64,000 nucleotides of DNA, taken from the NCBI GenBank assembly GCA_002747255.1, contig PDUC01000036.1, positions 16,732-80,731 on the forward strand, written 5' to 3'. Below the pieces are notes generated by a model. That model worked only from the letters and a program-made list of their open reading frames with translations. It ran no database searches and had not been told where the DNA came from. Every line of letters begins with the position of its first letter. Within the stretch, counting starts at the first letter, position 1. Positions 165 to 18,985 of this stretch are shown here, piece by piece. A program made the position numbers and the translations under genes. Source of the DNA: Acidobacteriota bacterium. Lineage in GTDB: Bacteria > Acidobacteriota > Holophagae > Acanthopleuribacterales > Acanthopleuribacteraceae.

Positions 165-3065
165 TTAGTTACATACACTGGGTAACAGTATAATTAAGCT
201 TTGTAGCGTGGTGCCCTCTGGCTCTCTCCATTCAGAAGCAAATTCGTGGAACTCACTCCATGAAAGCTGCTCGCCGCTTCTATGCAATTCCATATATCGA
301 ACCGTTCCCTCCTCGTTCGTAACTTTGACATAAAAGGCGTCTGTAAATGCGCCCGTCTGAGTGTTTGAACTCGGAAGTAAATTGATCGGATCCGTTGTGC
401 TGAACTCATCATTGTAAATAGCCTCAATATCATTGTACCATTTGATGGAACTGATTGAATCTATATCGGAAAACTCAAGATAGGCCGTATCACAGCTGCT
501 GACAATTCTACTTTCTACATTGAATAAATTATCCGTCGCGGTAACTTCTTTACTGAGTATTTTCCAATCATTCAAAATCCAGTTGAAGTTGCTGTTTATC
601 GCGACTTCATCGGGGTTTTCGGCAAATATTCTGAGCTCTATCTGGTCGCATGCCGGGAACTGCACCTCTTCTTTGGTCAGGGGATCATCATTGCCATAAC
701 TGGTTGGTTCCGTCCAAACGTGCTCATCGTAGTAGGATAGCAGACTGTTTTGCTGACCGGCATATCCTAAATCGTAAAATGGAAATTGGTTGTAATCAAA
801 GTTACCTAAATTGTCAGGATCCTCGTTGATATTCAACCAGGGGCCTGGAGTCTGATTGTTAATCACACGATACTCCAGGGATCCGCCAAAATTCCAATTG
901 GCATAAAAATGACGAATTTGTTCAATCTCAATGGATAAATGTTGAGAGTAAGCAATGGGATCCGAATACAGATAGTACACAGGAATTCCACTGCTCCTAT
1001 CCGACAACGGAGCCAATTTACATTCATACCGCTGCATTTGAGCATTCCATCTCCATCCGTAAATACCCTCGGGATCAGCTGTTGGGTTGGAAGAGCCTTC
1101 CTGAATAAGAGTAGAAGGAACAACTTTGGGATCGTTATCACTGTATTTGGGTGTCAACTCTTGAAAATCGAGACGGTTAATATACGCGAAATCATGATCC
1201 AAAAAAGAAGGCGCTGTTTGGTTAAACTTTGCTTGCGCTATTTCCTCTTTGAGGTATAGAAGAGACAAAACCCCTTCCTCCATTTTTTCAAACCCGAAAA
1301 GGAGCAGCAAGGGTTCATCATCACGAAAATCATTAAAAGGACGAGCCTTGATAAGTTCGTACATGTAAAGCGTATTGCTTTTCGGCAACCTGATCACAGG
1401 CGTACCGATAAGAGATGCATCGTTTTCCAGAGTTCCCAGATACCCGCCTTCACCAATAATACCTGAAGAATTAGCCAAGCCAGCGAAGTCACTCTCGCTA
1501 AAGACTTTGTGCATTTGGCCATGCATGAGAACATAGGAGTTTTGCGTCGACACATAGCCGTGGTAGTAAAGGCCGGTATCGGCTTGAGCCATGTCAACGG
1601 AAATAACTTCGCCCTGATCAAAGAAGAAGTCCAATTCCTGGTTAGATCCAGGGTTGAGAACTTCCTCTGTCAAAGCCCAGTTAGACAGCTCCATAGGCCT
1701 TTCGAAAACAGCCTCTACACTGGCAAGAGCTTCCAATTCGCTTCCGTTCCCGTATCGGATATTGGCACGCACGGTAATATCAGAAGCATCCACTGTAGCA
1801 ATGCTGAACTCACCGCTCTGTGTCAGATTGAAAGTCGTCGTGAACTCAGCGAGAGAACTGGTGCGAATGCCCCGGTTATCTTCAACTACCCAATCAATTT
1901 CAAAACCGCTCTTCAAGAAGTCTGAAGGTGTATGTAGTTCTGCCTGAATATAAGTCATTCCATCTGTGGCATCTTTTACCCTCAGAGATAGTTTTGCTTC
2001 GTCGAAAGCGGCAACCTCTGCACTGAAAAAATCATCTGCGGAAGCCACATCGCATGAAATACTGGTACCCCTGAAGAGCCTGGCAGATCGAACAATAAAA
2101 CCCTGCCCACTTACGAAATACATCCTGTACGGCCCCCCGGATGAATAATTGAAATCACTCCATAGCGGACCATTGCAAGAACCGGAACCCAGCAGTTCCC
2201 CATCTGTTACTTCGAAAATATTGATACCCGCTCCTTCATCCTCCAAGCTCCCTGCGCCACCGAGTACTGCCTGATCCACTTCAATGGTTTCACCGTCATC
2301 CTGAATAAAGACCGTGCCCTCATATTGAGTTAAATATGCTGATCCTTGATGCGCAAGAATAACTTCGCACTCTGAAGAAATGGGATATCTGAAGTAACTG
2401 ACATTGTTCCAGGGTGAACCAGGAGAGCTGGCATTCCAGTCCAACCACAAAAAGACACGATCACTCGAGGTTAATGTCTCAGCAACAACTGATGTAAGAT
2501 TTTGAGCCTGAGTAAACGCTGAAAAAACTTGAGGCCCTAGATAAAACGACAATTCATCACTTAAAATAACGGAGGTTCCGGGATTTCTTAAAAAGTTGAG
2601 CTGGTCGCTCTGAGGGTCACATTCAAAAGGATCTTCATAACCGACGATGTCCAGAGAAAGTGAAAAATTAAAAATTTCCTGGCCGTTACAAACAGAAGTA
2701 GCACCGGCATTGCAAAAATCACTTCCCGGTATATTTAATACATGTACCGCAAAATCCACTTGTATGGGAACCACCGACGAAGAATTAACAGGTATGGTTT
2801 GCCAACCGGACAAGTTGGTAATGACCACATGCTCATCTGTCAAACATTCGGGAGGTAACAATGTGAACTTGCCAATTCCTGAAGGCCGATTCGTCGAACC
2901 ATCGTAATAAACCTGATACCTGACAAGCTTGGTTTGATTCATGGAAAGGACATCTGCCCCGTCACCATTAAGAATTTGTTTACTATGGACGACAAACCCG
3001 TCAGCAATTGCATTCGCACAAAACAATGGAATAATAATTAATAAAAGTAACAAACGATATTTCAT
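165..3065 (-). CDS. large secreted protein, 966 aa, no domain recognised
   Basis: The ORF track gives 165..3122. I prefer the ATG at 3065. MKYRLLLLLIIIPLFCANAIADG is a Sec signal peptide, GAGGTG lies 5 nt upstream, and a -24/-12 promoter (3091-3106) lies inside the longer ORF. No motif could be assigned by eye. Confidence 0.8.
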   Translation of the reverse strand: MKYRLLLLLIIIPLFCANAIADGFVVHSKQILNGDGADVLSMNQTKLVRYQVYYDGSTNRPSGIGKFTLLPPECLTDEHVVITNLSGWQTIPVNSSSVVPIQVDFAVHVLNIPGSDFCNAGATSVCNGQEIFNFSLSLDIVGYEDPFECDPQSDQLNFLRNPGTSVILSDELSFYLGPQVFSAFTQAQNLTSVVAETLTSSDRVFLWLDWNASSPGSPWNNVSYFRYPISSECEVILAHQGSAYLTQYEGTVFIQDDGETIEVDQAVLGGAGSLEDEGAGINIFEVTDGELLGSGSCNGPLWSDFNYSSGGPYRMYFVSGQGFIVRSARLFRGTSISCDVASADDFFSAEVAAFDEAKLSLRVKDATDGMTYIQAELHTPSDFLKSGFEIDWVVEDNRGIRTSSLAEFTTTFNLTQSGEFSIATVDASDITVRANIRYGNGSELEALASVEAVFERPMELSNWALTEEVLNPGSNQELDFFFDQGEVISVDMAQADTGLYYHGYVSTQNSYVLMHGQMHKVFSESDFAGLANSSGIIGEGGYLGTLENDASLIGTPVIRLPKSNTLYMYELIKARPFNDFRDDEPLLLLFGFEKMEEGVLSLLYLKEEIAQAKFNQTAPSFLDHDFAYINRLDFQELTPKYSDNDPKVVPSTLIQEGSSNPTADPEGIYGWRWNAQMQRYECKLAPLSDRSSGIPVYYLYSDPIAYSQHLSIEIEQIRHFYANWNFGGSLEYRVINNQTPGPWLNINEDPDNLGNFDYNQFPFYDLGYAGQQNSLLSYYDEHVWTEPTSYGNDDPLTKEEVQFPACDQIELRIFAENPDEVAINSNFNWILNDWKILSKEVTATDNLFNVESRIVSSCDTAYLEFSDIDSISSIKWYNDIEAIYNDEFSTTDPINLLPSSNTQTGAFTDAFYVKVTNEEGTVRYMELHRSGEQLSWSEFHEFASEWREPEGTTLQSLIILLPSVCN

Positions 3066-3090
3066 TACACACCTCACTGGGCGAACTGTA

Positions 3091-3106
3091 AGCATGTTTT
3101 GTGCCA
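3091..3106 (-). promoter_or_regulatory. sigma-54 (-24/-12) promoter for the 165..3065 gene
   Basis: The minus strand reads TGGCAC-AAAAC-ATGCT. GG and GC have the canonical 10-nt separation (consensus TGGCAC-N5-TTGCW). It lies about 26 nt upstream of the ATG at 3065. Confidence 0.6.
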
Positions 3107-3236
3107 AAGCAATAATCCGCAAAAACGCACCGTCCAGCTGCTGTGAAACCGAAATTCCGGCTCGAATGCAAAACGCTCTTTTAACATCTCTTTACATTAC
3201 ATCACATAAAATATACATTTAGCTTTTTAAAAACAC

Positions 3237-3284
3237 AAACACGGGTCTGTTGTCTCGTTTCAGCGAGACAACAGACCCGTGTTT
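3237..3284 (-). terminator. strong rho-independent terminator ending the 7683->3305 operon
   Basis: Perfect 21-bp inverted repeat AAACACGGGTCTGTTGTCTCG / CGAGACAACAGACCCGTGTTT with a 6-nt loop. On the minus strand it is followed by GTGTTTTTAAAAAG. It lies 20 nt after the stop at 3305. Confidence 0.8.
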
Positions 3285-3304
3285 GCTTAATCAAAAAAAG
3301 AAAA

Positions 3305-3814
3305 CTAAAAAGGAAGACCCTTTTTATCTATTTTGTGTTCTTTAAACAGCACCCACTTTTCGCCCTCTTTGATCCAGTTTTGTTTTAATGGCATTTGATT
3401 GAATACAAACATACCATGCTGAGCATGTACATGTACCTTTATATTGAAACCGTTATCGTTCTCTTTGGTGGCTTTCTTGATTTCCACCTTTTGTATTTTA
3501 AGTGTCTCTGCCTGCAAATACTCTTTAATCGGAATGTTTTTCCGATAAAGTTCACAGAGCATTTGATAACAGGTAATGAAGTCCTCTTCAATGTAACTGA
3601 TCCAATACTGCTTAACAGCCAAAGCCAACTCACTGTCAATAGCTTCAATCAGGCCAACACCTTTGACGTACTGTTCTTTACTGTCTTTGTCAACCTCAAC
3701 TGGCTTATCATTCCCAGCCACAAGAAGGGAGCTTGCACCAGCAATTAAAATAAATAAAAAAGCCAAACTCAATTTGTTTTTGTTACCAAGCATACTTGCT
3801 CTCCTTTTCTTCAA
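3305..3814 (-). CDS. small secreted protein, unknown function
   Basis: Hydrophobic N-terminus LSLAFLFILIAGASSLLVAG. It overlaps the upstream gene (alternative ATG at 3793). It is the last gene of a four-gene operon. An NTF2-like fold is only a guess. Confidence 0.6.
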   Translation of the reverse strand: MKKRRASMLGNKNKLSLAFLFILIAGASSLLVAGNDKPVEVDKDSKEQYVKGVGLIEAIDSELALAVKQYWISYIEEDFITCYQMLCELYRKNIPIKEYLQAETLKIQKVEIKKATKENDNGFNIKVHVHAQHGMFVFNQMPLKQNWIKEGEKWVLFKEHKIDKKGLPF

Positions 3815-4538
3815 TTAGCTTTTCAAATCGATCCAGACCGTCCAGATATACCTTGCCCCATGAACTGTCTTTAAATTGTAAGCGGTTGTAAATCTTTTTT
3901 AAATGACCGTGCCCAAAGTAAATCCGTAGATAAAGAATCTTGAAAAAAAGTTTCTTTTTTTCAACTTCATCAGTCGTTTCATCTAATTTATCGATTAACA
4001 CCTTTCCCACAGCTTTTTCCAAATCAGAAATCTTGTAAAACAACCCAAGCAATCCGTTAACCTGCATATCATCTGGCCGTTGTATTCTTGAATCAAAAAG
4101 CCTTCCCATTGCCTGATCCCGATAACCGAGATAAAACAAGACAGCACAAGCGCCACAGTATTTTTTGGAGTCATAGTTTTTTGCAACTTCACTTTTAAAT
4201 TTACTCAATTGAGATTGAAGATGTATGTGTCTGTCATGGTATTTTTTTTCCAATTCGCCGTTGTGATACAGGCCCTTGTCTTTCAGTGCTAAATATAAAG
4301 CTTCTGAGTAGACGATATGAGCACAGTCATAGAGGTAATTGAGGACGCTTTCAATTGAATCTGTTTTCCCTTCTGCTAACTCATCAAGTGCATCATAGGA
4401 TAAGTCTGAGAACTTTGTGGCTTCCTTAAGGAGAAGTCGAACCCTGGGATCATTTTCTAACTGTTCTAGCGCCGATTGGTTTGCAGGAAGCAACTGAAAC
4501 CACAATAAAAAAGAGATGATTACACCCGCCCCACTCAT
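3783..4538 (-). CDS. secreted, predicted helical protein, unknown function
   Basis: 251-aa ORF with a signal-like N-terminus (VIISFLLWFQLLPANQSA). Its ATG overlaps the upstream stop (ATGA at 4535-4538), indicating translational coupling. Confidence 0.6.
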   Translation of the reverse strand: MSGAGVIISFLLWFQLLPANQSALEQLENDPRVRLLLKEATKFSDLSYDALDELAEGKTDSIESVLNYLYDCAHIVYSEALYLALKDKGLYHNGELEKKYHDRHIHLQSQLSKFKSEVAKNYDSKKYCGACAVLFYLGYRDQAMGRLFDSRIQRPDDMQVNGLLGLFYKISDLEKAVGKVLIDKLDETTDEVEKKKLFFKILYLRIYFGHGHLKKIYNRLQFKDSSWGKVYLDGLDRFEKLIEEKESKYAW

Positions 4539-5251
4539 TTTTTTTCATCCTTCTTCATGACATATCTCTTTTTCGGCATATAGCCATCTTTTTCGAGATT
4601 CCTCAGTGAATTTTCTATTTCATTGAATACTTTATTGACTTCCTCAAAATCGCCTCTGCTGGAGTACAAAAGTTGCCGTCTATTGTCAATAATGTAATAG
4701 GAATTCATTCCATAGACTTTAAAGGCAGACCTAAAAGAATCGTTATAATCATAATACAAATTTTTAGGAATTTTGATGTTATTAGCTTGAAGCTTTTCTA
4801 GTGTTTTGGAAAAAAGCTCTATGGAATTACCACTTAAATCATAAAAGATACTTATCAGGTTAATACCAGGATGGTCACTGTATCGATTCTGTTCTTCAAT
4901 AAATCGCTGCCAAACTTTATCTCTTTTGATTCCATTGAAGCTCCAATATTGTATCAGCGTCACACGATCGAGCTTTGGAACAACAATCTCTCCCGATTTA
5001 TTCATAAAGCTGAATTGGTCGAAACTGACAGCCGATTCCTCTTTATAGGGAATGATCACTCTCTTCCCAACCTCTTCCATTCCGATAATCTCGCCTTCGG
5101 TTTCTGTTCCGTCAGCGTTTTTTAATTTAACTTTTAATTCGGGTAGCACATTTACATTCTTTTTTTCACTTTGGCCTTTCACCGTAACAGCTGCCAGACC
5201 GCATACTAAAAATAAGGCAACGGCTAAATATCTTAAAAATTTAACACTCAT
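4535..5251 (-). CDS. periplasmic thioredoxin-fold (TlpA/redoxin-like) protein lacking the CxxC motif
   Basis: Signal peptide LAVALFLVCGLAAVTVKG. The pattern TLIQYWSFNGIKRDK ... FKVYGMNSYYIIDNRRQLLYSSRG follows the redoxin layout, but W-S-F-N-G replaces W-C-x-x-C. There is an ATGA overlap with the upstream gene. Confidence 0.45.
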   Translation of the reverse strand: MSVKFLRYLAVALFLVCGLAAVTVKGQSEKKNVNVLPELKVKLKNADGTETEGEIIGMEEVGKRVIIPYKEESAVSFDQFSFMNKSGEIVVPKLDRVTLIQYWSFNGIKRDKVWQRFIEEQNRYSDHPGINLISIFYDLSGNSIELFSKTLEKLQANNIKIPKNLYYDYNDSFRSAFKVYGMNSYYIIDNRRQLLYSSRGDFEEVNKVFNEIENSLRNLEKDGYMPKKRYVMKKDEKK

Positions 5252-7683
5252 TTAATTAACTCCATAACATCATACGTCCTTGTCTTGTTTTTTGCAATTA
5301 TACTTTCGTCCAGTTTCAAATAGGGTAAAGGGCTCTTAGATACATATTTCCGATCCGCGTTATGCCTTGTTTTGTAGTATTGCACATAGACTTCCTCCGG
5401 CATTTTGACCATGAAGTGCGAAATATTGGCCAGGTCACCCTCGACTATTCCGTTTTCTAAAATTTGACTCATTGAAAAAACACCTGACGAGTATGCAGCC
5501 AACGGATTTCCAAGCTCCGTATTAAACCTGCCAAGTCGGTTGCCGTTTGAGTCATATGCCGAAAAAAGGACGTGTTGAAAGCGATTTGTGCGATTAATCA
5601 CCTCAAAACTGCCATTTTCCTGGAAAGGCCAGACCGAACACTCCTTCATATCAATTAATTTACTGATAAAAAAGTCTCCCGATACGATCGATTCGTTATA
5701 GGAGGCATGGACTTCGATACCTACAATTGGATACTGACTGAACATATTTAGGTAATCCCCTTGTTCAGGTTGATAACCGTCCAGCAAATTCAAGGCCAGG
5801 TTCAGGTGTTTTTGTCTTGGTTCCAGAAAAAATGAGCCTTTTGTCTTTTCGTATCCATTTTTGTCGATGACTTTGTACATAATTTGATTTTCTACCTCAG
5901 ATGTATTGACAATCGCCAATCCGTTCCACCCTGTTTCGGCAGAATAAATTTGCGAAACGTAAAACTCACCAAAACACTCTCGGTAGTCATTGAGAGCGTA
6001 AGAAATGACCTGATTAAGGCCGGTTTGATAGAATTCCACTTCACTTTGAAACTTTCTGCCATCTACTTCTCTAAGTGAGAACCAATAGCCCACAGGTGGC
6101 AGAGTCTTGTTGACAAAGGTGGAAACAGGATAAACACCTACCCCGCCTTCCACAAAAAACCTTTCTTTTCTTACCTCATCTCCGTCTTTATCGTAGATAG
6201 TTAACTCAAAGTTCATTATCGGCGTGTCACCGTGAATTCGCAACTCCGTCTCCCAGCCGTAAAGGTGGGCAATATGGGGGAAATATCTCGTTGTACTATT
6301 TTGTAACTCTCTAGAATAATAGGGTGTTGTAGCTTCGTCTTCCAAGCCGTAGAACTGCACAATTGTGGAATCAAAATAGGGCTTACAACCCTCGACAACC
6401 ACTTCTTTCGTACTAATCGAGCCAAACGGAGCCAGTGTGGATGTTTTTTCGCCATTTTGATATGGGATAGACTTTTCTGAAAAATTGACAACTACACCCA
6501 TTCTTTCGTCCTGCAAGTACATACTGTTGTCCGGCAGACGTACGATATAGAAGCTGGGTTCTGCACTTCCACTGGTAAGGTGAAGCACATATTCACCGTC
6601 AACCAGATCAGAAGAAGCAATTTCCGTATTTCCTTCGCCGTTTAACAAAACTTCTCCTGTAGTTGGATTGAGAAGCTCCCAGACCACACTGGATCCTGAA
6701 TAATTCACCAGTTCAACAGATTCCGGCAGGCCACCTACGACCCGAAATGAATAATAATCAGCATCGCCATCACGGGTACAACCAAGTGTAATTTGATTTT
6801 TCAACTGGAATGCTTGACTTATTTCACCATTGGGCTCCTGGTAATCAACATTGGAATACACATCCTCAGAAGACGCATCCATGAAGGCTTTTACATTTTC
6901 ATAAGTAAGGAATCTGTTACTGTGTAGATCCCAACGACTTATAAAATAAGGAACCCCGGGAAGCCAGGCGAATTCGGGATATGTATCGCTCACCCATTCA
7001 TATTCATCGTCGCCTGAAATAGTGTACTTCACATCAACAATGTAGAAAGGAACCAGTGTTAATTCCAGCTGGGCAGACATCGACATTGGCAAAGTCAAAA
7101 TGAGTTTGACGGTAACAAGCTGATTCCCATTGCCATCGGAACCTCTGGACATCGCATATCCTGACACTGGATAGTTCCATTTTTCATCACCATTACCCAT
7201 ATCTAATATGATGTTATTCCCTCTCATCAGGAAAGTCTCAACAATGGAATTAAAACCCCTGGCTGTGAGCCCACCTGCACCGAAAGGTATGATGTTGTCA
7301 TCGGATCGGGTGACTGATAGCAGTGCTCTCATTTCCGGTTGCATCAATTTCATACCATTGGTAACAACTGCTTCTGGATCATCAAAAAGAATTGAAGCGG
7401 CTGCCCAGCCATCACAGTTTCCATACCAGTGAGGCGCTGTTGCATCAACTAAATATCTCTCCTCGTAATCACAGGCATTGGGTGAGAGACCCATAAGTCC
7501 TGTCATACTGAGTTTTGCAAGAGGACCTGGATAACCAAAAAAGCCCTCGCCCTTAACCATGATATTCTCTGATAAAGGCAACCAATCGCCTGTCCACGCA
7601 ATTTTGTCAAAATAGATGTCTTGACTGAAAACGCCCAGAGTCGAAAAAAGAAACAACACAGCTATCTTATAATCTTTTGTCAT
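5248..7683 (-). CDS. 811-aa secreted protein: N-terminal GP42-like (transglutaminase-elicitor-like) Cys domain plus repeated beta-sandwich-like modules
   Basis: GGAGG Shine-Dalgarno and a signal peptide IAVLFLFSTLGVFSQ. Motif HWYGNCDGWAAAS (Cys90, nt 7414-7416). KWNYPVSGY (nt 7156-7179) resembles the Pep-13 core WNQPVRGF. The C-terminal half carries three modules of the type W-x-[TG]-x-h-x-h-x-N ... YD-x-[DN]-G. Confidence 0.75.
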   Translation of the reverse strand: MTKDYKIAVLFLFSTLGVFSQDIYFDKIAWTGDWLPLSENIMVKGEGFFGYPGPLAKLSMTGLMGLSPNACDYEERYLVDATAPHWYGNCDGWAAASILFDDPEAVVTNGMKLMQPEMRALLSVTRSDDNIIPFGAGGLTARGFNSIVETFLMRGNNIILDMGNGDEKWNYPVSGYAMSRGSDGNGNQLVTVKLILTLPMSMSAQLELTLVPFYIVDVKYTISGDDEYEWVSDTYPEFAWLPGVPYFISRWDLHSNRFLTYENVKAFMDASSEDVYSNVDYQEPNGEISQAFQLKNQITLGCTRDGDADYYSFRVVGGLPESVELVNYSGSSVVWELLNPTTGEVLLNGEGNTEIASSDLVDGEYVLHLTSGSAEPSFYIVRLPDNSMYLQDERMGVVVNFSEKSIPYQNGEKTSTLAPFGSISTKEVVVEGCKPYFDSTIVQFYGLEDEATTPYYSRELQNSTTRYFPHIAHLYGWETELRIHGDTPIMNFELTIYDKDGDEVRKERFFVEGGVGVYPVSTFVNKTLPPVGYWFSLREVDGRKFQSEVEFYQTGLNQVISYALNDYRECFGEFYVSQIYSAETGWNGLAIVNTSEVENQIMYKVIDKNGYEKTKGSFFLEPRQKHLNLALNLLDGYQPEQGDYLNMFSQYPIVGIEVHASYNESIVSGDFFISKLIDMKECSVWPFQENGSFEVINRTNRFQHVLFSAYDSNGNRLGRFNTELGNPLAAYSSGVFSMSQILENGIVEGDLANISHFMVKMPEEVYVQYYKTRHNADRKYVSKSPLPYLKLDESIIAKNKTRTYDVMELIK

Positions 7684-8054
7684 TTTGTTACCTCCATCTT
7701 TTTTGTCATTACTATTTCATTCAGCAAGAATCATGCAAACATCTTGATAGTCTGGCATATAAATTGTTTCGGCCATTTAAATAGTACTGGATCATTTGCC
7801 GTATTCACCCGCTCTAAAACCCTGTTAACGGTAGATGCATTCGTCAAGAAAACAGAAATCTTTCATTGTTGATTGTAATAGTTGCAGCCTTTTTTTGACT
7901 CCACCCCATTTACCATACCGAATCACACAACATCTGGAACTTGTTTGATTCTATCTTCTACAACTTGCACTCATTCGCACATTTTTCATCCAGAAATGAT
8001 CATTTCCTCAAAACATCTTCACGCAATAAAACTCAACCGGGTCAAAAAAAGCTT

Positions 8055-8092
8055 GGGCCTTCCATTTCATGTTTTCACTCAATGGAAGGCCC
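8055..8092 (-). terminator. rho-independent (bidirectional-looking) terminator after the 8151..10238 gene
   Basis: 12-bp stem GGGCCTTCCATT / AATGGAAGGCCC with a 14-nt loop. It is flanked by an A-run (8044-8050) and a T-run (8093-8098), so a T-tract follows the hairpin on both strands. Confidence 0.8.
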
Positions 8093-8150
8093 TTTTTTCA
8101 TCCTATTTTTTCAAAAGAAAAACTAAGACTTGTTTAAAAGAATCATCAAA

Positions 8151-10238: not shown

Positions 10239-10357
10239 TTGTAAAAACCTCCAAAGATTTTTATTAAGTTATTTTTTCCAACCGGATTCAGATTTACGCC
10301 CACCATTTATGATATTAATGCAAGTCACAGCCCTTAGGCGAGACGCACCCGTTACTA

Positions 10358-10373
10358 TGCAATCAACGTGCCA
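10358..10373 (-). promoter_or_regulatory. sigma-54 (-24/-12) promoter for the 8151..10238 gene
   Basis: The minus strand reads TGGCAC-GTTGA-TTGCA, a perfect match to TGGCAC-N5-TTGCW. It implies a 5' UTR of about 100 nt. Confidence 0.75.
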
Positions 10374-10459
10374 ACTCACGCAAGTATGTATATCATAATA
10401 TAACTACAATTTAGCTGACATAGTTGTTTTTATAAACGAGGAAACAACCCCTGCACAGA

Positions 10460-10478
10460 TGTCTCCACTCAAGAGACA
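10460..10478. promoter_or_regulatory. candidate enhancer (UAS) inverted repeat TGTCTC-N7-GAGACA
   Basis: Perfect 6+6 inverted repeat about 90-105 bp upstream of the sigma-54 promoter at 10358-10373. The same half-sites recur at 17302-17320 and 3251-3270. Confidence 0.35.
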
Positions 10479-10569
10479 GTATCGGCATGTTTACCAATTT
10501 CAAATGATCTCAGGACTGTTTGAAGCAATATTTTTCAAAATACCAGGCTACTGATGATAAAATATCTCA

Positions 10570-11841: not shown

Positions 11842-13997
11842 TGAAGAACAGCAAGTTCATTGGCATCCTCTTGGTTCTTTTTCTGTTGTCTCACATCTTT
11901 TTGCTGGCAGATGACCGTTTTTTAGACAGCTATAAAAAAGGTTGTGAAGCCATGAACATGCAGGAATACAGCCAGGCCATTGCGTACTTTGAAAGCGCAA
12001 TAGCTGAGGAACCAGTATCATCCAACAAGGTGAGAGACTACGGTGTGCAGTTTGTCTCCTATCATCCCTACACTTACTTAGTTGAAGCCTATCTCATGTG
12101 GCAGGGACCTGACCACCTGGAAAAGGCACGACAGTATGCCGATTTGGCTGTTCGCTACAAAGAAGACGACCCCGAAAAGTTCCAAGAATTAAAAGCCAAA
12201 GTAACCCGCCTCAGGAGAATCGTCGACTCACAAATTCAGGCCAACACCCAGCAGGAAAAACCCAGCATTCCGTTAGATACTGTCAACCTGCTTATATCTC
12301 AAGGCCAGTTTCATGAAGCGCTGGACCAAATCAATCTCCTCATACACTCTTTTCCGGATGAAGCCATTCTTAAAAGCACCAAGCACCTTCTCAGGGAACT
12401 GATCCTCAAAACAACTACCGCTGAGAAATCTGAACAGGCACATAAAAAGAACCTTGACGAGTTTTTACTCAAAGCGAGGCAAAGCATTTCAGTTGACAAT
12501 CAGGAAACAGCTTATTTGTACTATTTATATGTAGACGTTCTCGATCCGGGCAACGAAGAAGCTGCTTTGTTTATTGAAAAGTTCAAGCAGAACCTTGCCG
12601 ATCAGGGAAAAACCCAGGAAGAAATCGCCTTGGAGTTAACCTCCTACAAAACAGAAAATCAGGATCTTCTCAATAGGTTGACTGAACTGGCGGATAAAAA
12701 TAAAAAGATTAGAAATGAGCTTGAAGTCCTTCAAAATCAGATGTCACAGATGGAATCTGCAACTCAGCCCGTCACGCCCCAAGTTGAAGTTACCTGGGAC
12801 CCCAAACCAGTCAAAGATGAAGAAAGAGAATATCATTTGAGCGCCACTATCAACAGTAACATTCCCATCGAGAGTGTTAAATTCTTCAGCAATGGCGTGC
12901 TGATTAAAACATGGGAAAATATTGGCAAGTCTCATTTCAAAATGCCCACTATTCAGAATTTCAGTTTTCTCAACTACCAGAACCGGCTGCGCCTGGAAAT
13001 AAGAGATATCAGGGGGAATATACACAACGATGAAATTCCATTAAACATCCCTCAGTCTACCAACAAATTCTTCCAGCACTTCCCGAAAGCATTTGTAGTT
13101 TTTGTTCTATTTACTGTTTCCTACGTTTATATGTCGAGACAACGCAAGAAAAGACAGGCTTTCAGGGAGCGGTTCAACCCCTATGTAGCGGGTGCACCTG
13201 TCTTTTCAAGCTCCATGTTTTATGGAAGACACGACCTTTTGAAACAAATATTAAACACTCTGCATAATAATTCCATGATGATCTGCGGTGAACGAAGGAT
13301 AGGTAAAACGACTTTGATGCATCGCCTGCATTCGGTGCTTCCGGCTTTGGATGATCCAGAGTATCAGTTCTATCCCGTCATGATTGACTTACAGGGGATG
13401 GTAGAAGAGGATTTTTTCGCCAGTATGGACCACGAAATCATTGACTCACTGGCAGAAACAGGTATCAAGCTGCCAGAATACTGGGAAGGCACCATGAATG
13501 TTCGTGTTTTCACCAAGCGAATACGACAGATCATCAGTGAACTCAAGTCCCATTCCGATCGTTCACCAAAACTCGTGCTCTTGTTGGATGAAGTCGATAT
13601 TATGAACAGCTTTTCTGAAAAGACCAACCAGCAGTTGCGTTCCGTTTTCATGAAGGGGTTTGCTAAACATCTAGTAGCTGTTATGGCAGGCATTCACTTA
13701 AAGAAGCGATGGGACAGTGAGGGGAGCCCATGGTACAACTTCTTTGAGCAGATAGAATTGCAGCCATTTACTAACAGACACGCCAAAGCTTTGATCGAAA
13801 ACCCGGTTAAGGGTATTTACAGCTACAGCGACGAGGCTGAAGATCGCATACTGGAGTTAAGCAACCTAAAACCCTACGTTATTCAACGTCTTTGCGTCAA
13901 TCTCATTGCAACTATTCTGTCTGAAAACAGGCGCCGTGTGACTCGCAAGGATGTCGATCGTGTTTTTGAGTCCATCCAGAAGGAGAAAGAGCAATGA
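11838..13997 (+). CDS. bitopic membrane protein: periplasmic TPR + coiled coil + beta domain, one TM, cytoplasmic P-loop ATPase (Arch_ATPase/ATPase_2-like)
   Basis: ATGA overlap with the OMP gene. N-terminal anchor FIGILLVLFLLSHIFLLA and a TPR-like segment YSQAIAYFESAIAEEP. A long heptad-rich segment is followed by a TM, FPKAFVVFVLFTVSYVYMS (about nt 13081-13140), and then RQRKKRQ. NPYVAGAPV...FYGR...GERRIGKTTL is Walker A (nt 13287-13313) and LVLLLDEVD is Walker B. Confidence 0.75.
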   Translation: MMKNSKFIGILLVLFLLSHIFLLADDRFLDSYKKGCEAMNMQEYSQAIAYFESAIAEEPVSSNKVRDYGVQFVSYHPYTYLVEAYLMWQGPDHLEKARQYADLAVRYKEDDPEKFQELKAKVTRLRRIVDSQIQANTQQEKPSIPLDTVNLLISQGQFHEALDQINLLIHSFPDEAILKSTKHLLRELILKTTTAEKSEQAHKKNLDEFLLKARQSISVDNQETAYLYYLYVDVLDPGNEEAALFIEKFKQNLADQGKTQEEIALELTSYKTENQDLLNRLTELADKNKKIRNELEVLQNQMSQMESATQPVTPQVEVTWDPKPVKDEEREYHLSATINSNIPIESVKFFSNGVLIKTWENIGKSHFKMPTIQNFSFLNYQNRLRLEIRDIRGNIHNDEIPLNIPQSTNKFFQHFPKAFVVFVLFTVSYVYMSRQRKKRQAFRERFNPYVAGAPVFSSSMFYGRHDLLKQILNTLHNNSMMICGERRIGKTTLMHRLHSVLPALDDPEYQFYPVMIDLQGMVEEDFFASMDHEIIDSLAETGIKLPEYWEGTMNVRVFTKRIRQIISELKSHSDRSPKLVLLLDEVDIMNSFSEKTNQQLRSVFMKGFAKHLVAVMAGIHLKKRWDSEGSPWYNFFEQIELQPFTNRHAKALIENPVKGIYSYSDEAEDRILELSNLKPYVIQRLCVNLIATILSENRRRVTRKDVDRVFESIQKEKEQ

Positions 13998-15418
13998 GGA
14001 ATCCCTTTTCTGCAGGAAGCTGGGTATCCGGTAAGGGCTTTATCGGCCGGGAAGAAATCATGCAGCGGCTCATCTATTCAAATGAAAATTGTGATTGGGT
14101 ACAGGCACAGCGGAGAATGGGAAAAACCTCCTTACTCAGACAGCTGGAAGAAAAAATCAACAAAGGACAGATCGAATCCGCGTCCATCAGGACCACTTTG
14201 GCCGTGTTTTGGGATATCCAGGGAAGTTATGACGCCAGCGGACTCCTTGAAAGTCTTGAGGACGCGCTGGACGACAGTTACGATCTGTTCCCCCAATCAT
14301 GGCATGACATGGACCCCTCGGATTTTCAGGCCGATCACCCCCATCAGACCATAAAAAATCTCACCAGACAGCTTAGAAAAAAAGCTATGGGCTTAACACT
14401 TCTCATCGATGAAGCGGAAGAGTTGATGACCTTGAATGAAAAAAATCCTGAAACTCTGGCACGACTGAGAAAAGTGTTTCACACCTCATCCAACATTCAT
14501 ACGATCATTTGTTCCACTCCACGTCTTGAAAACTTGAGACAACATCAAGCTATTGAAACATCGCCCTTTCTCCACGGATTTCAGGTCCACTACTTGAGTA
14601 CATTCAATAGAAAAGAAACACAGCAATTACTCGATATGGGTAATATCCCAGCCGATATCGGAGAAAGGATATACCAGCTCACACACGGTAATCCCTATCA
14701 AATACAATTATTTGCAAAGTACTTTTTTGAGAACAGAGATTTCGAGGAAACAAGCTTGTTCATGCAAAGCAATCCGTCTCTTTCCCAGGTACACGATGTC
14801 AACCTCGGCTTGCTCACCGAAAGAGAGCAAGAGATCCTATCAAAGTTCACCATGGATCACCTTCAATCACCCCCGTCAGAAAGTAACCAGTTGATCTTTA
14901 AGAAACTCATTAGATTGGGTTACTTATCGGGAAATGAAAAATCCCCCAGCATTGCATCGGATCTTTTCCACAAATGGCTAAAGCGGTATTTCAGTCAAAA
15001 TCTCAACCTTCATCCAAAAGACCTGAAGGACATGCCACTCAGCGAAGCAAGCAGCAAGATAGTTCGTGAGAACATTCTCAATTTGTACCAGTATCTGCTG
15101 CAAAAAATGCAACAGGGATACCGGCTGAATGTCCATGCGGGACACTTCAACGTATCCAGCATGGATAAAAAAGCCTATCCCACTCATGAAGCCTCTGAGC
15201 AGAAAGCAATAGCTCCCAACTTGAATACCCCTCTCTGGTCTCTGGCACTACAAGATCTCATCATTCTCACTCAGGAATTATTTGATTTCAAGAAACACTG
15301 GTCCTGCTTCCGCTTGATGGAATTAGCAAATAATCTGGGCAACACTACAGAAGAAGAAATTCTTGATCTTATGAATCTGATTAGAGAAGAAGCCCGGCTG
15401 GAATCGGAAAAGATCTGA
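13994..15418 (+). CDS. soluble P-loop ATPase of the same (Arch_ATPase/STAND-like) type with a helical C-terminal region
   Basis: ATGA overlap with the upstream gene. NPFSAGSWVSGKGFIGRE...AQRRMGKTSLLRQL is Walker A (nt 14104-14130) and LTLLIDEAEEL is Walker B. No TM segment is present. Confidence 0.7.
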   Translation: MRNPFSAGSWVSGKGFIGREEIMQRLIYSNENCDWVQAQRRMGKTSLLRQLEEKINKGQIESASIRTTLAVFWDIQGSYDASGLLESLEDALDDSYDLFPQSWHDMDPSDFQADHPHQTIKNLTRQLRKKAMGLTLLIDEAEELMTLNEKNPETLARLRKVFHTSSNIHTIICSTPRLENLRQHQAIETSPFLHGFQVHYLSTFNRKETQQLLDMGNIPADIGERIYQLTHGNPYQIQLFAKYFFENRDFEETSLFMQSNPSLSQVHDVNLGLLTEREQEILSKFTMDHLQSPPSESNQLIFKKLIRLGYLSGNEKSPSIASDLFHKWLKRYFSQNLNLHPKDLKDMPLSEASSKIVRENILNLYQYLLQKMQQGYRLNVHAGHFNVSSMDKKAYPTHEASEQKAIAPNLNTPLWSLALQDLIILTQELFDFKKHWSCFRLMELANNLGNTTEEEILDLMNLIREEARLESEKI

Positions 15419-15525
15419 TTCATATCAGAATCTTTGCATCATCGTCTGCGTTATCACATGGAAAGGATTAGACGTGTTTCAGCTATTATTAATCTTTAAA
15501 GAAGCTAAATGAAAAAGGAAGGGCG

Positions 15526-17007
15526 TTACTCTGTTTCCTCTAATTTGACATTTTGAATGGGTAGGGAAATGAGAGCGATATCGGAATCATTTTTACCAAG
15601 CATGGTTGATGTGAAGGAACCCTCGATGCTGCTGATCACAAAATAAAAAGTCTTTGCGGTATCTTCTTTAAACAGGTCTGCCAAAGCAGTTTCATCAATA
15701 GACCAGGCTTCAGAAGGACTTAATTCTCTTTTGTTGTAACCTGCGACCCTTCCATCTTCAGCCAGGATAGACAATCGAACAACGATGGGCGTTTTCTCTG
15801 TATTTTGAATGTACAGAGTTCTGCTGACCATGCTCTGACCTGTCAGCCAGAAGCTGGAGTAGTTGCCTGCCTGTTGAATATTCACAGCGCCCAAGGAAGA
15901 CCTGTTATCGGTGGCATAATGAAGACCGTGGACAGTGTATTCTGCCAGTTGTTCCTGGTCTTCAAGTTCTTCGTCCACTTCAGGAAGGATAATTTGAAAT
16001 TGAATTCTCAAAGGAATTTTTCCATCAGTTGCGTAAATCTCATTAAACCAGGTTGAACCAACAACACCAGAGATTCTTGTATTTGGAGGAAGCTTTAGTT
16101 CAATAGAATCCTCTTTGACATCAAAGCCACTCTCATCATCTCCGCTGAGAAACATCTCGGTATAGACCAGGGTGAGATTCATGTGAATTTCATGGTTGTG
16201 AGGGTTGGTAAATGTCGCCCAATGACTTGTATTTTCCATAAATGGCAGAAGCGGCAGGGATCCATTTTGTAAAACCTTGGTATTCAACTCAAAGGCACAA
16301 GTCTGTTTGGATTCGTCTACCTTTGAAAAGGTTTGATAGCCCACCAGTTGAAACTCTGGATTCTGACACAGAACCTCGCCCCAAAAAGCCGCAACAGGGT
16401 TATCCAAATCTCCCAGGAACACATCGAAGTACGGTGTTTTTTTCAAAAAGCCGGCGTGATTCAAACCCGACCACAATTCGGTTTCCTGCGGAAGCCCGTC
16501 CACGTCATAAAATCTGAAATCCAAATTGGATTGCATGGAATCACCGATCCCCACAACGGAGAAACTCGATTTCCAGGTGAAGTAATTGGTTCCTATTTGC
16601 GGAATGACCACTCGATTGCCGTGATTCAAGTGAAGCGAAACGCCGTTTAATTGGCCCGTCTCTGTGTTGTGGATCCACATGAAACCTTCCAGTGGCACAT
16701 CTGACCGGAAGATGAGCGACTGCACCGCCGCAAGTGATTCCCTGTGATCGAAAGGAGAGAAAGAAAAACCGCCACTTCCATTGATGATTACATCGTCGAA
16801 TTTGACTATTTCCCTGCCAAGGAAACTGTAACCTCTGATGTCTATTCGATGTTCACCTTCACCCTGAACGCCCGCTTCGATGAGGTATTGCCATTCCCCG
16901 CTAAATGTTTTCTCTGGCAAAGGTACAAAGCTGATGTACTCGGGACTATCATCTGTAAGTCCTGCCATACCTAACAATAAAACTAATAATAGTAACGTTT
17001 TTTTCAT
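15526..17007 (-). CDS. 493-aa secreted protein, no known domain, shares beta-sandwich-like modules with the 5248 and 8151 proteins
   Basis: The ORF track gives 15526..17064. I prefer the ATG at 17007 (MKKTLLLLVLLLGMAGL is a signal peptide), because a -24/-12 promoter lies at 17046-17061 inside the longer ORF. Confidence 0.75.
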   Translation of the reverse strand: MKKTLLLLVLLLGMAGLTDDSPEYISFVPLPEKTFSGEWQYLIEAGVQGEGEHRIDIRGYSFLGREIVKFDDVIINGSGGFSFSPFDHRESLAAVQSLIFRSDVPLEGFMWIHNTETGQLNGVSLHLNHGNRVVIPQIGTNYFTWKSSFSVVGIGDSMQSNLDFRFYDVDGLPQETELWSGLNHAGFLKKTPYFDVFLGDLDNPVAAFWGEVLCQNPEFQLVGYQTFSKVDESKQTCAFELNTKVLQNGSLPLLPFMENTSHWATFTNPHNHEIHMNLTLVYTEMFLSGDDESGFDVKEDSIELKLPPNTRISGVVGSTWFNEIYATDGKIPLRIQFQIILPEVDEELEDQEQLAEYTVHGLHYATDNRSSLGAVNIQQAGNYSSFWLTGQSMVSRTLYIQNTEKTPIVVRLSILAEDGRVAGYNKRELSPSEAWSIDETALADLFKEDTAKTFYFVISSIEGSFTSTMLGKNDSDIALISLPIQNVKLEETE

Positions 17008-17045
17008 ATTTGTTTCCGATCGATCAAATCCGACACACTCAATGA

Positions 17046-17061
17046 AGCAATATGCTTGCCA
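17046..17061 (-). promoter_or_regulatory. sigma-54 (-24/-12) promoter for the 15526..17007 gene
   Basis: The minus strand reads TGGCAA-GCATA-TTGCT with canonical GG/GC spacing. It lies about 39 nt upstream of the ATG at 17007. Confidence 0.7.
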
Positions 17062-17301
17062 CAACTGCCAGAGACAACTTCAACGCGACCCTAACCCTTG
17101 TTTACAAACAACTTAAAGAGCACGCTCACCCAAGACTCATGTCTTTTCTCGTTCAACAATTCATACTCTTTTACACAACCATTCTTGAACCCTTTATTTC
17201 ATAAACAGCTTTTTCAAGATATGGAGTGATTTAAGATCCCTACATCAACATATTGTGTGGGTAACTTGCCTTTTCAATGAATAAACACGCTCGCAAGATG
17301 C

Positions 17302-17320
17302 CGTCTCTGCTCTGGAGACA
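17302..17320. promoter_or_regulatory. candidate enhancer (UAS) inverted repeat CGTCTC-N7-GAGACA
   Basis: 11 of 12 positions match the 10460-10478 repeat, with the same 7-nt spacer. It lies about 240 bp upstream of the sigma-54 promoter at 17046-17061. An extra GAGACA half-site is at 17071-17076. Confidence 0.3.
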
Positions 17321-17347
17321 GCCTTTATGTCAAGCGCTTTTTATGGA

Positions 17348-18985
17348 TCAGGACTTCAGGCCTGTGCGATCGAGCATTTTGTAGAGCATGGTGCGATTGA
17401 TACCCGACTGCTTTGAGGCTTCGGGAATGGAGTTCCCGCATTCCCGCATCAGGTTGACCAGGAACTTGCGTTCAAGTTCAGATTGGATTGTTTTAGCCTG
17501 TTCGAGAATGTCATGTTTGACACGCTTCAACTCGTCATTTGTTCGCGGCAGCTCCGTTAGAGAGTCCAGATAGGTACTGAGAGAATCTCCGTTAATTCCA
17601 TGTTTCTCCGGCAAGGGCACTTCATCGGTATACAGGACGGGCTTTGATTCGAGTTCAAAGTCTGAGAACTGGTCCATCAAGCTCTCGGGAAAATGGTTTC
17701 GCGTTATTTTCTTGCCCTGACTCTGAATGAGCAGGTTCTGGATCAGGTTCTCGAGCTCTCTGATGTTTCCGGGAAATGAATAAGCATACAAAATATCGTA
17801 AACCCGAGAAGACACCTCGGGAACTTTCATTTTGAACTGCTTTGCATATCGCCTCAAGAAAAACTGGAACAGAGGCAAAATATCGCCTGGTCGTTCCTTG
17901 AGAGAGTGAATTTTAAAAGGTAGAACGGATAGTCGGAAATAGAGATCATCTCTAAAATTTTGTTCTTCCACAGCCTTTTTTAAATCTCTGTTAGTGGCGG
18001 CGATAATTCGGACATCGACCGATATTTTCTCCTTTCCACCCACCCGATGAAACTCTTTAAGCTGTAGAAACCTGAGAAGCTTAGCTTGAACCTTTAAATC
18101 CATTTCCCCAATTTCATCGAGGAAAAGAGTGCCATTGTGGGCTCGTTCCACCTTCCCGACATGCCTTTGAACGGCTCCGGTAAAAGCTCCCCGCTCATGC
18201 CCAAACAGTTCGCTCTCAATTAAGCCCTCAGGAATAGCGGCACAATTCACCGCCACAAAGTCATTCTTCTTTCTGGGACTGTGATTGTGAATGTAATTGG
18301 CCAGCACTTCTTTTCCTGTTCCGCTCTCCCCTTCCAGGAGGACTGTCACATCAGTAGGAGCGGCCTTCTTCAGGCTCTGCAAAAGTTTGAGTGACAATTC
18401 ATCCGTGGCCACCAATTCTGAGAAGTTCACTATGGGTTTCTTGAACAATTGAAAAGGCGCAACCATTCTAGAAAACACATTGGCAACCAGTTTAACGAAT
18501 AAGTTGCCATGGGAACCGGATTTGGGTCTGCCCGCTAAAATAAGCCTCAGCTCGCTCATGGCAAAGAAGAGATAAAAGGTCTGATTTAAGAATTCTGCCT
18601 TTCCATACTTGCCGTTCTCGAGCCAGTCTATCGGTGCGTTTTCCAGTTCAACCACCTGTTCTGGAACCAGGGTACCCTGCAAAACCCGCCAGGAGTTGGT
18701 TGTCTCTCTGTAGATACAGTGCTTGAGGTTGAAGGCGCTTTGCTGGTGAATAACCCAATCAAAAAAGCCTTTAATTGATTTGACATCCAGCAGCATGCCC
18801 AGGGAAAAGATATCGACTCCGGCCTCAGCCGAGGACTGATTGGAAACGGCTTTCTGGAAAAACCCCAGTTGAGATTTCATAATCTGAGCTCTTTGGCGAA
18901 TTTGATTCAAGTCCTCTTCCAAAGACAGCAGATTCAGATTTTCTTCGTAGTTTTCAAAAAAGAGTTGAATACCGTGGTCAGTCAT
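17348..18985 (-). CDS. sigma-54-dependent transcriptional activator (bacterial enhancer-binding protein), no receiver domain
   Basis: AAA+ core motifs: [11 protein letters not shown] (Walker A), [15 protein letters not shown] (GAFTGA loop) and [10 protein letters not shown] Fis-type HTH lies at the C-terminus. The N-terminal ~200 aa has no phospho-acceptor pattern and may be GAF-like. Confidence 0.9.

Follow-up and report, generated by a model that had tools for sequence, protein, structure and literature searches.

Gene content of the island

The DNA analysed here is a 64-kb stretch of the metagenome-assembled genome of a marine acidobacterium (contig PDUC01000036.1; locus tags CR997_...), referred to as the window. 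To judge by its relatives, the genome belongs to Holophagae, close to Acanthopleuribacter and Sulfidibacter. It holds an island of ten open reading frames (ORFs), labelled G1 to G10 and spanning positions 165-17007, which adjoins a gene for a sigma-54 enhancer-binding protein (EBP). We asked what this island encodes and how it might be controlled; its features are collected in Table 1.

ORF calls re-found the ten consecutive genes that a preliminary description of this DNA had listed. Overlaps of 4 nt (ATGA) join G7 to G8 and G8 to G9, in agreement with the translationally coupled operon of an outer-membrane protein (OMP) and two ATPases proposed there, and the same overlap joins G5 to G4 and G4 to G3. 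The overlaps thus place G7-G9 in one operon and G5-G2 in another and leave G1, G6 and G10 as single genes, and because terminators stand after G1, G2 and G6, G1 and G6 are read as monocistronic. Segments resembling signal peptides were recognized by eye at the N-termini of G1, G2, G4, G5, G6, G7, G8 and G10 and not in G9; with G3 doubtful, the presence of Sec signal peptides stands, while their number is eight or nine and not the seven counted earlier. G2 to G4 are small exported proteins forming the distal part of the G5 operon. Relatives of G4 and G2 adjoin G5 in five to seven related loci, and G1 to G4 are conserved less well than the other island genes.

Table 1. Positions of the genes and other features of the island, numbered within the window
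Feature	Position	Strand	Description
G1	165-3065	-	ORF, 966 aa; signal peptide MKYRLLLLLIIIPLFCANAIA
G2	3305-3814	-	ORF, 169 aa; weak DUF4878 match; signal-peptide-like start
G3	3783-4538	-	ORF, 251 aa; signal peptide doubtful
G4	4535-5251	-	ORF, 238 aa; signal-peptide-like start
G5	5248-7683	-	ORF, 811-aa secreted protein
G6	8151-10238	-	ORF, 695-aa secreted protein; monocistronic
G7	10570-11841	+	ORF, 423 aa; FadL-family outer-membrane beta-barrel
G8	11838-13997	+	ORF, 719 aa; periplasmic TPR, transmembrane helix, cytoplasmic AAA+
G9	13994-15418	+	ORF, 474 aa; soluble AAA+ with winged-helix core
G10	15526-17007	-	ORF, 493-aa secreted protein, mostly the module in common with G5
EBP gene	17348-18985	-	Sigma-54 enhancer-binding protein; Pfam domains and GAFTGA loop
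Promoter of G1	3091-3106	-	Predicted sigma-54 -24/-12 promoter, TGGCACAAAACATGCT; 25 nt from start codon
Promoter of G6	10358-10373	-	Predicted sigma-54 -24/-12 promoter, TGGCACGTTGATTGCA; 119 nt from start codon
Promoter of G10	17046-17061	-	Predicted sigma-54 -24/-12 promoter, TGGCAAGCATATTGCT; 38 nt from start codon
Candidate enhancer upstream of G1	3251-3270 (core 3252-3269)		Palindrome TGTCTC-N8-GAGACA, 146-163 nt upstream of the -24 element
Candidate enhancer upstream of G6	10460-10478 (core 10461-10477)		TGTCTC-N7-GAGACA, 88-104 nt upstream of the promoter; 92 nt upstream of the G7 ATG
Candidate enhancer upstream of G10	17302-17320 (core 17303-17319)		TGTCTC-N7-GAGACG, 242-258 nt upstream of the promoter
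Leader of G6	10239-10357 (~108 nt)	-	Invariant TGGAGG ribosome-binding site and 5' hairpin; ten upstream regions aligned
Terminator after G1	84-114	-	14-bp stem, then T-run
Terminator of G5-G2 operon	3238-3283	-	20-bp hairpin; tip 3251-3270 is the TGTCTC-N8-GAGACA palindrome
Terminator after G6	8044-8092	-	GGGCCTTCCAT...ATGGAAGGCCC, then T7; read from sequence
Recombination breakpoint in G8	12600-12700 (~12,650; ~residue 270, periplasmic)		Relative to the metagenome-assembled genome at L001

A conserved sigma-54 regulon

The window was scanned for the promoter pattern TGGCA-N7-TGCW (TGGCANNNNNNNTGCW), and sites were accepted where the GG and GC elements stood exactly 10 nt apart in a TGGCAC-N5-TTGC-like sequence aimed at a nearby gene start. 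The pattern occurs four times against 1.5 expected, and three of the four matches lie 15-110 nt upstream of G1, G6 and G10 in the correct orientation, confirming the three -24/-12 promoters of canonical spacing that had been noticed before. That of G6 is a perfect consensus (TGGCACG-N4-TTGCA). Transcription from all three is predicted to depend on RpoN.

The three promoters have a palindrome in common. Its core, GTCTC-N6-9-GAGAC, is present in three copies in the window where 0.16 are expected, a number that none of 100 shuffles reached; each copy stands upstream of one of the three promoters, and there is no further copy. This is the position expected of an activator binding site, which makes the palindrome a candidate site for the EBP. 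The copy upstream of G1 is the tip of the terminator hairpin of the G5-G2 operon, so that one sequence may serve both as a terminator and as a candidate activator site for G1. The copy upstream of G6 lies so close to the start of G7 that feedback on the G7-G9 operon would be possible.

Both elements are kept in related Holophagae, where all ten G6 orthologues have a -24/-12 site upstream and, ~85-115 nt further upstream of it, a TGTCTC-N7-RRRACA site. In all ten, the leader also has a 5' hairpin and the ribosome-binding site TGGAGG is invariant, although the DNA that separates these features cannot be aligned. For G10, a promoter site scoring at least 17 out of 20 was found in seven of the ten orthologues listed, with a weaker one (15.5) in L010 (L numbers denote the loci compared); the sites of the window and of L001 were masked by over-long ORF calls in the orthologue scan and were seen separately. 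The palindrome is kept in four G10 orthologues, with counterparts to the window site in L001, L002 and L008. The G5 operon has a sigma-54 site of its own in L002 and L009 and none in the window, and no sigma-54 promoter was found for the OMP operon in the Holophagae loci scanned.

Across orthologues the G6 leader measures ~100-150 nt, with a GC-rich hairpin at its start in all and TGGAGG at its end. It includes a semi-conserved stretch, GGTrGGCGwAA...AATCC, and has no match in Rfam. This leader may be mRNA-stabilising or regulatory.

The presumed activator has Sigma54_activat (PF00158, 237 bits), AAA_lid_14 and HTH_8 domains in Pfam and a GAFTGA loop in its sequence. Residues 1-190 match no Pfam domain (no REC, GAF or PAS), and a profile of seven EBP N-termini has no match in the PDB. 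Among the ORFs tested we found no other sigma-54 EBP, so the earlier remark that the only one in the window adjoins the island holds. Its gene overlaps ruvB by 8 nt, and ruvA and ruvB overlap by 4 nt (17348-20554); from this arrangement we take the EBP gene to be co-transcribed with ruvAB. The order ruvA-ruvB-EBP is kept in every related locus that extends that far (seven of nine). The joining of a Holliday-junction helicase operon to the activator of an envelope regulon is an odd pairing.

The gene neighbourhood, whose conservation the preliminary description had proposed as a check, is retained well beyond this genome: the order RuvA-RuvB-EBP-G10-[G9-G8-G7]-G6-G5 recurs in nine further Holophagae genomes at protein identities to the window of 21-100%, among them the cultured Acanthopleuribacter pedis KCTC 12899 (L005) and Sulfidibacter corallicola M133 (L006). 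A. pedis (L005 9572-10001), S. corallicola (L006 9258-10001) and L013 have no FadL-like gene between G6 and G8, although they retain G8, G9, G10, G6 and G5. In A. pedis such genes are found in paralogous triads (L075/L076).

With three sigma-54 promoters, a palindrome unique to them in the window, and promoter and enhancer both conserved at orthologues, the idea of one co-regulated module is upheld, and we are confident that G1, G6, G10 and the EBP form a conserved sigma-54 regulon with a common enhancer.

The central operon: a FadL-like barrel and two AAA+ proteins

The OMP encoded by G7 belongs to the FadL family. A profile of 32 relatives matches 3dwo, a FadL homologue of P. aeruginosa, at 1e-12 over profile positions 36-381 of 443, and also CymD, TbuX, TodX and E. 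coli FadL at 1e-9 to 1e-12. By itself the window protein reaches 24.1 bits with PF03349, short of the gathering score of 29.7, and its orthologues in L002 and L003 carry recorded, unmarked matches to that family. The alignment of relatives has a conserved N-terminal motif, ...GLGGAFVGLADDATA..NPAGL. Matches to NCBIfam PorV_fam (39 bits, cutoff 90) and PorQ (38 bits, cutoff 220) are confined to ~45-75 N-terminal residues.

For G8, the AlphaFold2 model (predicted local distance difference test, pLDDT, 86) gives a signal peptide, TPR and long helices at 27-306, a beta-sandwich at 316-403, a transmembrane helix at 410-445, a basic stretch and a cytoplasmic AAA+ domain at 465-718. The periplasmic part has TPR profile matches, and the Walker A (GERRIGKT) and Walker B (LLLDEVD) motifs are invariant in the family. 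In Foldseek the closest matches of low root-mean-square deviation to the AAA+ domain are Orc1/Cdc6 (2qby_A), RFC subunits and ORC (4.5-6 A, probability 1.00), and the modelled fold is accordingly described as Orc1/Cdc6/RFC-like and not as that of a secretion ATPase. The match of G8 to AAA_22 is marginal (27.7 bits, gathering score 27). G9 is a paralogue of this ATPase domain (E 6e-9), with Pfam matches to AAA_22 and AAA_35 and a helical C-terminus of ~100-140 aa. Models of STAND-type NTPases stayed below threshold (nSTAND6 20.4 vs 27.7, nSTAND1 17.5 vs 27.1, NACHT 14-19.5 vs 26.7, AAA_16 22.3 vs 32.6), and PDB sequence searches with single G8, G9, G7 and G5 gave nothing significant.

The two halves of G8 evolve at different rates. 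Its cytoplasmic part is 67% conserved against 30% for the periplasmic part (92 against 66% in another pair), the latter evolving much faster. Fast-evolving sensor domains coupled to conserved transmitter domains are a typical pattern.

Relatives of the triad in other phyla

A scan of 185,579 species genomes with the G8 alignment found 173 relatives, distributed over Holophagae, Thermoanaerobaculia, Vicinamibacteria, Polarisedimenticolia, KSB1, Calditrichia (Calditrichota), Woeseiaceae, Binatia and others. The protein database contains at least 287 clusters of the family, under no names more specific than 'TPR repeat protein', 'ATP-binding protein', 'AAA family ATPase' or 'hypothetical protein'. 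In the literature we found no description of an OMP/TPR-AAA+/AAA+ system. Among the 48 loci with at least 4 kb of flank on both sides, a FadL-like OMP lies within 8 kb in 35 and a second ATPase is present in 39, directly downstream in 32.

Outside Holophagae, the protein in the position of G9 carries recognizable output domains. One class, of ~640 aa, has a C-terminal Ser/Thr kinase (Pkinase in 21/21), and another, of 477-629 aa, has an N-terminal winged helix of the OmpR/CadC type (Trans_reg_C in 11/11). G9 aligns with both, over residues 1-376 with the AAA-kinase class (hhalign E 2e-73) and over residues 3-331 with the winged helix-turn-helix (wHTH)-AAA class (E 2e-59). By these alignments G9 is an orthologue of the NTPase core of the AAA-Ser/Thr-kinase and wHTH-AAA proteins of other phyla. 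One would look for such fusions in a signalling module rather than in an exporter. A GAF-type EBP divergently adjoins the triad in six KSB1/Calditrichia-like loci, and histidine kinases neighbour it in three other loci.

The surroundings of the triad vary between lineages. Holophagae genomes carry second, paralogous triads (L044, L052, L065, L075). In four Woeseiaceae loci (L057, L064, L066, L068) a DUF5666/DUF2807 lipoprotein lies between the divergent wHTH-AAA gene and the TPR-AAA+ gene, and in three of them (L057, L064, L066) three small membrane proteins follow.

The leading idea of the preliminary description, that the operon is an export or assembly machine, fares poorly against the Orc1/Cdc6/RFC-like fold, the kinase and winged-helix fusions and the loci of A. 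pedis and S. corallicola, which have no adjacent OMP. A sensing device, the third option raised there, fits best in view of the signalling fusions at the G9 position, and on balance we favour the view that the operon is a trans-envelope sensor.

Large secreted proteins and their common module

The four large proteins of the island (G1, G5, G6 and G10) are acidic (pI 4.2-4.6; G1 4.2), and to judge from sequence and domain searches they are lineage-restricted, all-beta and Sec-exported. They had been called unplaceable, and they largely remain so: Pfam and NCBIfam have no match for G1, G6 or G10, and G5 has only a short match to TGase_elicitor. Inspection of the C-termini by eye revealed no motif of the PEP-CTERM, LPXTG or type IX secretion system (T9SS) C-terminal domain kind. 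G1 is poorly conserved, with only partial matches of 23-28%, in L001 and L002.

The G5 match to TGase_elicitor (PF16683) exceeds the gathering score (29.3 against 25 bits) but covers 49 of the 361 profile positions (GP42-like), and a match to PDB 3tw5 is weak (E 0.2). Its N-terminal Cys domain has an invariant W86-G88-C90-W93 (WxGxCxxW) in ten orthologues and no invariant His, and is followed by a PPC-like EPN..D.D motif. G5 may be a Cys-dependent enzyme.

G10 and G5 have a C-terminal module of ~300 aa in common, residues 149-467 of G10 being homologous to residues 463-744 of G5 (hhalign probability 95%, E 3e-8). It recurs (hhalign probability 97%) at the C-termini of a family of secreted proteins of ~1090 aa, here called c20, whose genes lie divergently upstream of paralogous OMP/ATPase/ATPase operons of the same lineage. 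In L044, L052, L065 and L075 the c20 proteins measure ~1070-1120 aa and end in the G10/G5 module; a sigma-54-like site precedes three of the four genes (L044, L052, L075) and the palindrome two of the four (L044, L065). A hidden Markov model (HMM) of the module also finds ~900-aa beta-lactamase-family proteins, which have FadL-like genes on either side in loci of the Thermoanaerobaculia type. When 1.84 billion representatives were scanned in full with HMMER, the module turned up in only 40 proteins, nearly all of them G10- or G5-like, so the family is small. A role as a widespread sorting domain on many enzymes is unsupported at the HMMER sensitivity used. The G10 family profile has no match in the PDB.

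In the Sulfomarinibacteraceae-type loci L035 and L067, two FadL-like genes enclose one for a beta-lactamase-family protein of ~860-1040 aa (PF00144, 8e-53) that contains the module twice, and L060, L078 and L083 have a similar gene set. A gene for a wHTH-AAA regulator lies near the beta-lactamase/module locus in L035, L060, L067 and L078.

G6 is 100% identical to CR997_07950. It has 34 homologue clusters; those with a named source are from Acidobacteria/Acidobacteriota, and most are metagenome sequences. Its AlphaFold2 model (pLDDT 78.6) is all-beta, with three or four beta-sandwich domains, for which Foldseek (PDB, BFVD) returned only generic multi-Ig surface proteins at template-modelling scores of 0.1-0.2 and no specific homologue; neither SLH nor any other Pfam domain was found. 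The perfect promoter, hairpin-capped leader, strong ribosome-binding site and strong terminator, together with the lowest effective number of codons among 24 genes compared (47.2), suggest that the product is probably very abundant. G6 is flagged as a candidate major surface protein of this acidobacterial lineage. Among the large secreted proteins encoded at the paralogous loci, the G6 family HMM found none.

A cassette exchanged between near-identical genomes

Compared with the metagenome-assembled genome (MAG) at L001, the window has a near-identical side (RuvB 100%, EBP 99%, G9 98%, G10 96%) and a divergent side (G7 76%, G6 43%, G5 26%). DNA identity is 96-99% to the right of a breakpoint within G8 and 70-80% to its left, after which the two cannot be aligned. 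The position of this breakpoint means that one exchange took in the TPR domain, the barrel, G6 and also the G5 operon and left the ATPase domain, G9, G10 and the EBP in place. The swapped stretch runs leftwards through G1 as a divergent allele.

The replacement was seen in the window/L001 pair only, which points to a single event. General hypervariability of G6 is ruled out, since other pairs show the same degree of conservation in G6 as in the EBP. The cassette fits co-adapted periplasmic and surface parts, and with only one pair hitch-hiking is a possible alternative. Exchange of G6 together with the OMP and the sensor domain is a pattern like that of surface structures exposed to phages or predators.

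Other features of the window

A complete-looking type II secretion system (T2SS) cluster on the minus strand, at 31190-42919, encodes the GspD secretin, GspK, pseudopilins including GspG, GspF and GspE; it lies 14 kb from the island, as had been stated, and could serve to export the regulon proteins. At 22958-24472 a gene for an IstB/DnaC-like ATPase (PF01695, 45.6 bits) precedes a domain-free ORF of 217 aa; the two may be what is left of an IS21 element, or a helicase-loader pair. Two regulatory genes have no obvious link to the island: a STAS-domain anti-sigma-antagonist gene beside ruvA (20630-20968), kept in L003, and a gene for a sigma factor of the extracytoplasmic function (ECF) type (54247-54933). 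At the far end of the window (62489-63760) lies a gene for a 423-aa PA14-domain protein (55.8 bits), putatively surface or carbohydrate-binding. Scans of the window for tRNA genes and Rfam families gave no match.

Discussion

Our observations are consistent with a sigma-54 regulon that has its own envelope sensor. G7 and the variable TPR domain of G8 would sense a cue in the periplasm or at the outer membrane. Since hydrophobic molecules pass through FadL barrels, a hydrophobic ligand is plausible for G7/G8. The conserved AAA+ domain of G8 would hand the signal to G9 by nucleotide-dependent assembly, in the manner of Orc/Cdc6- or STAND-type switches. As the Holophagae G9 has only a helical tail, and an EBP without a sensory domain is its conserved neighbour, the EBP is the obvious candidate for the output: G9, having no output domain of its own, would act on this EBP, which lacks a receiver (REC) domain and which would in turn bind the palindromes and fire the three promoters. 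The regulon proteins would use some other path to the surface or the medium, such as the T2SS at 31-43 kb. They may serve as a surface coat, as adhesins or in the capture and hydrolysis of a substrate.

We hold the parts of this reading with different degrees of confidence. That both parts are combined in this island, regulon and built-in sensor together, we regard as evenly balanced. More tentatively, we propose that the triad represents an undescribed class of trans-envelope signalling, in which a FadL barrel, a TPR-AAA+ protein and a paralogous AAA+ protein are joined to interchangeable outputs (a kinase, an OmpR-type domain or, in Holophagae, the REC-less EBP) in Acidobacteriota, KSB1, Calditrichota, Woeseiaceae and other sediment bacteria, and which here may switch on abundant, strain-variable surface proteins.

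Several points weigh against the reading as a regulon with its own sensor. RpoN dependence is a prediction. The Holophagae G9 has no kinase or DNA-binding domain, and the link between G9 and the EBP is thus drawn from conserved adjacency only. Two KSB1 loci have sigma-54-like sites before the OMP operon, so that there the EBP may act on the triad rather than receive its input from it. Module-bearing secreted proteins adjoin triads in the paralogous Holophagae loci and FadL-like genes in Thermoanaerobaculia, and the OMP, the G8 TPR domain, G6 and G5 were exchanged together between near-identical MAGs; both observations would also fit the relationship of a machine to its cargo.

Such a machine, for export, assembly or anchoring, would have G7 and G8 span the envelope with the help of G9 and place G6, G10, G5 and G1 on the surface, the module being a sorting or anchoring signal. 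It would account for the single cassette that holds the OMP, the G8 TPR domain, G6 and G5, for a module common to G10, the G5 C-terminus and the c20 proteins (hhalign 95-97%), for c20 genes divergent from paralogous triads and for module-bearing beta-lactamase proteins between FadL-like genes. There are also precedents in PorV, which is FadL-like and shuttles cargo, and in ExeA, a bitopic AAA_22 ATPase that aids outer-membrane assembly; G8 attains the AAA_22 gathering score. We nevertheless consider this explanation unlikely, as the G9 core is fused in other phyla to kinase and DNA-binding domains, which point to signalling, and the AAA+ fold is not that of a known translocation ATPase. Most triad loci beyond Holophagae have no module-bearing neighbours, and conversely A. 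pedis, S. corallicola and L013 keep G6, G5 and G10 without an adjacent OMP. The likeness of G7 to PorV_fam is far below cutoff and limited to the N-terminal hatch region, 40 module-bearing representatives are not a broad and diverse cargo, and a T2SS is available within the window.

Rather less probable, in our judgement, is a locus for substrate acquisition, with the logic of a polysaccharide-utilization locus, where G5, G6 and G10 release a hydrophobic or peptide product, the barrel imports it, and G8, G9 and the EBP sense it and induce the genes. Compatible with the sensor model, it differs only in the purpose of the regulon. The FadL family is known for uptake of hydrophobic compounds, and its members TbuX and TodX occur in sigma-54-controlled catabolic operons. 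G5 has a TGase_elicitor-like Cys motif and a PPC-like motif, the latter typical of secreted proteases, and in Thermoanaerobaculia a module-bearing hydrolase of the beta-lactamase family stands between two FadL-like genes. Yet the island has no catabolic or inner-membrane uptake genes, G5 lacks an invariant His for a catalytic triad, and G6, which is the best conserved and probably the most expressed of these proteins, has no enzyme-like feature.

It is improbable that the sigma-54 regulon (EBP, G1, G6, G10) and the OMP/ATPase operon are independent and merely adjacent. The operon does lack a sigma-54 promoter of its own, and the triad occurs without G6, G10 and G5 in many phyla. However, all the Holophagae loci examined have it between G10 and G6, even where the flanking proteins are down to 21-45% identity; paralogous triads have their own sigma-54-driven, module-bearing gene, EBPs adjoin the triad in KSB1 and Calditrichia too, and an enhancer palindrome lies in the intergenic region common to G6 and G7.

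A role in conflict or defence, with STAND-like NTPases that sense attack by phages or competitors and variable surface proteins as decoys or receptors, would agree with the weak Pfam matches to nSTAND1/6 and NACHT and with a strain-level cassette replacement of the kind typical under phage pressure, but is very improbable: every nSTAND score is under threshold, no effector domain (nuclease, protease, TIR etc.) is present, the locus keeps a fixed chromosomal site by ruvAB over an order-level lineage, unlike a mobile defence island, and G6 is as conserved as the EBP in other genome pairs. A known anti-phage defence system was rejected, since PADLOC returned only trivial matches of P-loop length (19.2 and 15.7 bits).

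Comparison with known systems

As the preliminary description had supposed, no component of the type I to type IX secretion systems was found in the island by Pfam scans. The nearest resemblance to T9SS is to PorV/PorQ, in that a FadL-like barrel lies near secreted proteins with a common, beta-rich C-terminal module and near G5, which resembles a Cys enzyme. The PorV_fam and PorQ scores are, however, far under cutoff, no T9SS family (PorV/PorQ, PorU) appeared in the Pfam scans of the window, and the island module measures ~300 aa and is present in only ~40 representative proteins. The GspA/ExeA-GspB/ExeB pair likewise combines a bitopic AAA_22-type ATPase and its periplasmic interaction domain with an outer-membrane partner. 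The topology of G8 is the reverse, with a C-terminal ATPase; G8 has no peptidoglycan-binding domain in Pfam and no GspB partner, and the partner in the triad is a FadL-type barrel and not a secretin. A T2SS lies 14 kb away here, and none is present in the other loci.

Closer parallels are found among signalling proteins. STAND NTPases with TPR sensors include MalT and PH0952 (PMC6468293). These proteins and the kinase-linked PknK resemble the triad in their NTPase core with winged helix, TPR sensor and DNA-binding or kinase effectors. In the island, by contrast, sensor and effector are on two paralogous proteins, the TPR part is periplasmic with a transmembrane helix between it and the NTPase, the modelled fold is nearest to Orc1/Cdc6/RFC, and all nSTAND scores are sub-threshold.

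The PspBC-PspA-PspF, FleN-FleQ and NifL-NifA systems are alike in having an EBP without a receiver domain under the control of a partner protein. The input to Psp is the state of the envelope, sensed by membrane proteins, and FleN, a P-loop ATPase, binds to its EBP. Neither G8 nor G9 is related to these partners in sequence, the island adds an outer-membrane part, and its contact with the EBP is one that we infer.

In its logic the island comes closest to Fec-type signalling (FecA, FecR, FecI), which likewise combines an outer-membrane barrel, a bitopic inner-membrane protein and a dedicated transcriptional output for adjacent genes. No component is homologous: the barrel is FadL-type where that of Fec is TonB-dependent, the inner-membrane protein is a TPR-AAA+ ATPase where Fec has an anti-sigma factor, and where Fec has an ECF sigma factor as its output, the triad has an AAA+ partner (kinase, wHTH or, here, EBP and sigma-54). 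On sequence evidence, then, the island lacks the defining features that could be tested of each family compared here and is best described as putative trans-envelope signalling built from non-homologous parts. The triad family is large and common in poorly studied marine and sediment phyla, and its Holophagae version is tractable on paper, with one activator, one candidate palindrome, three promoters, few targets and two cultured hosts. If our proposal is true, Gram-negative bacteria would have a second, ATP-driven route from the outer membrane to transcription, beside TonB-dependent cell-surface signalling.

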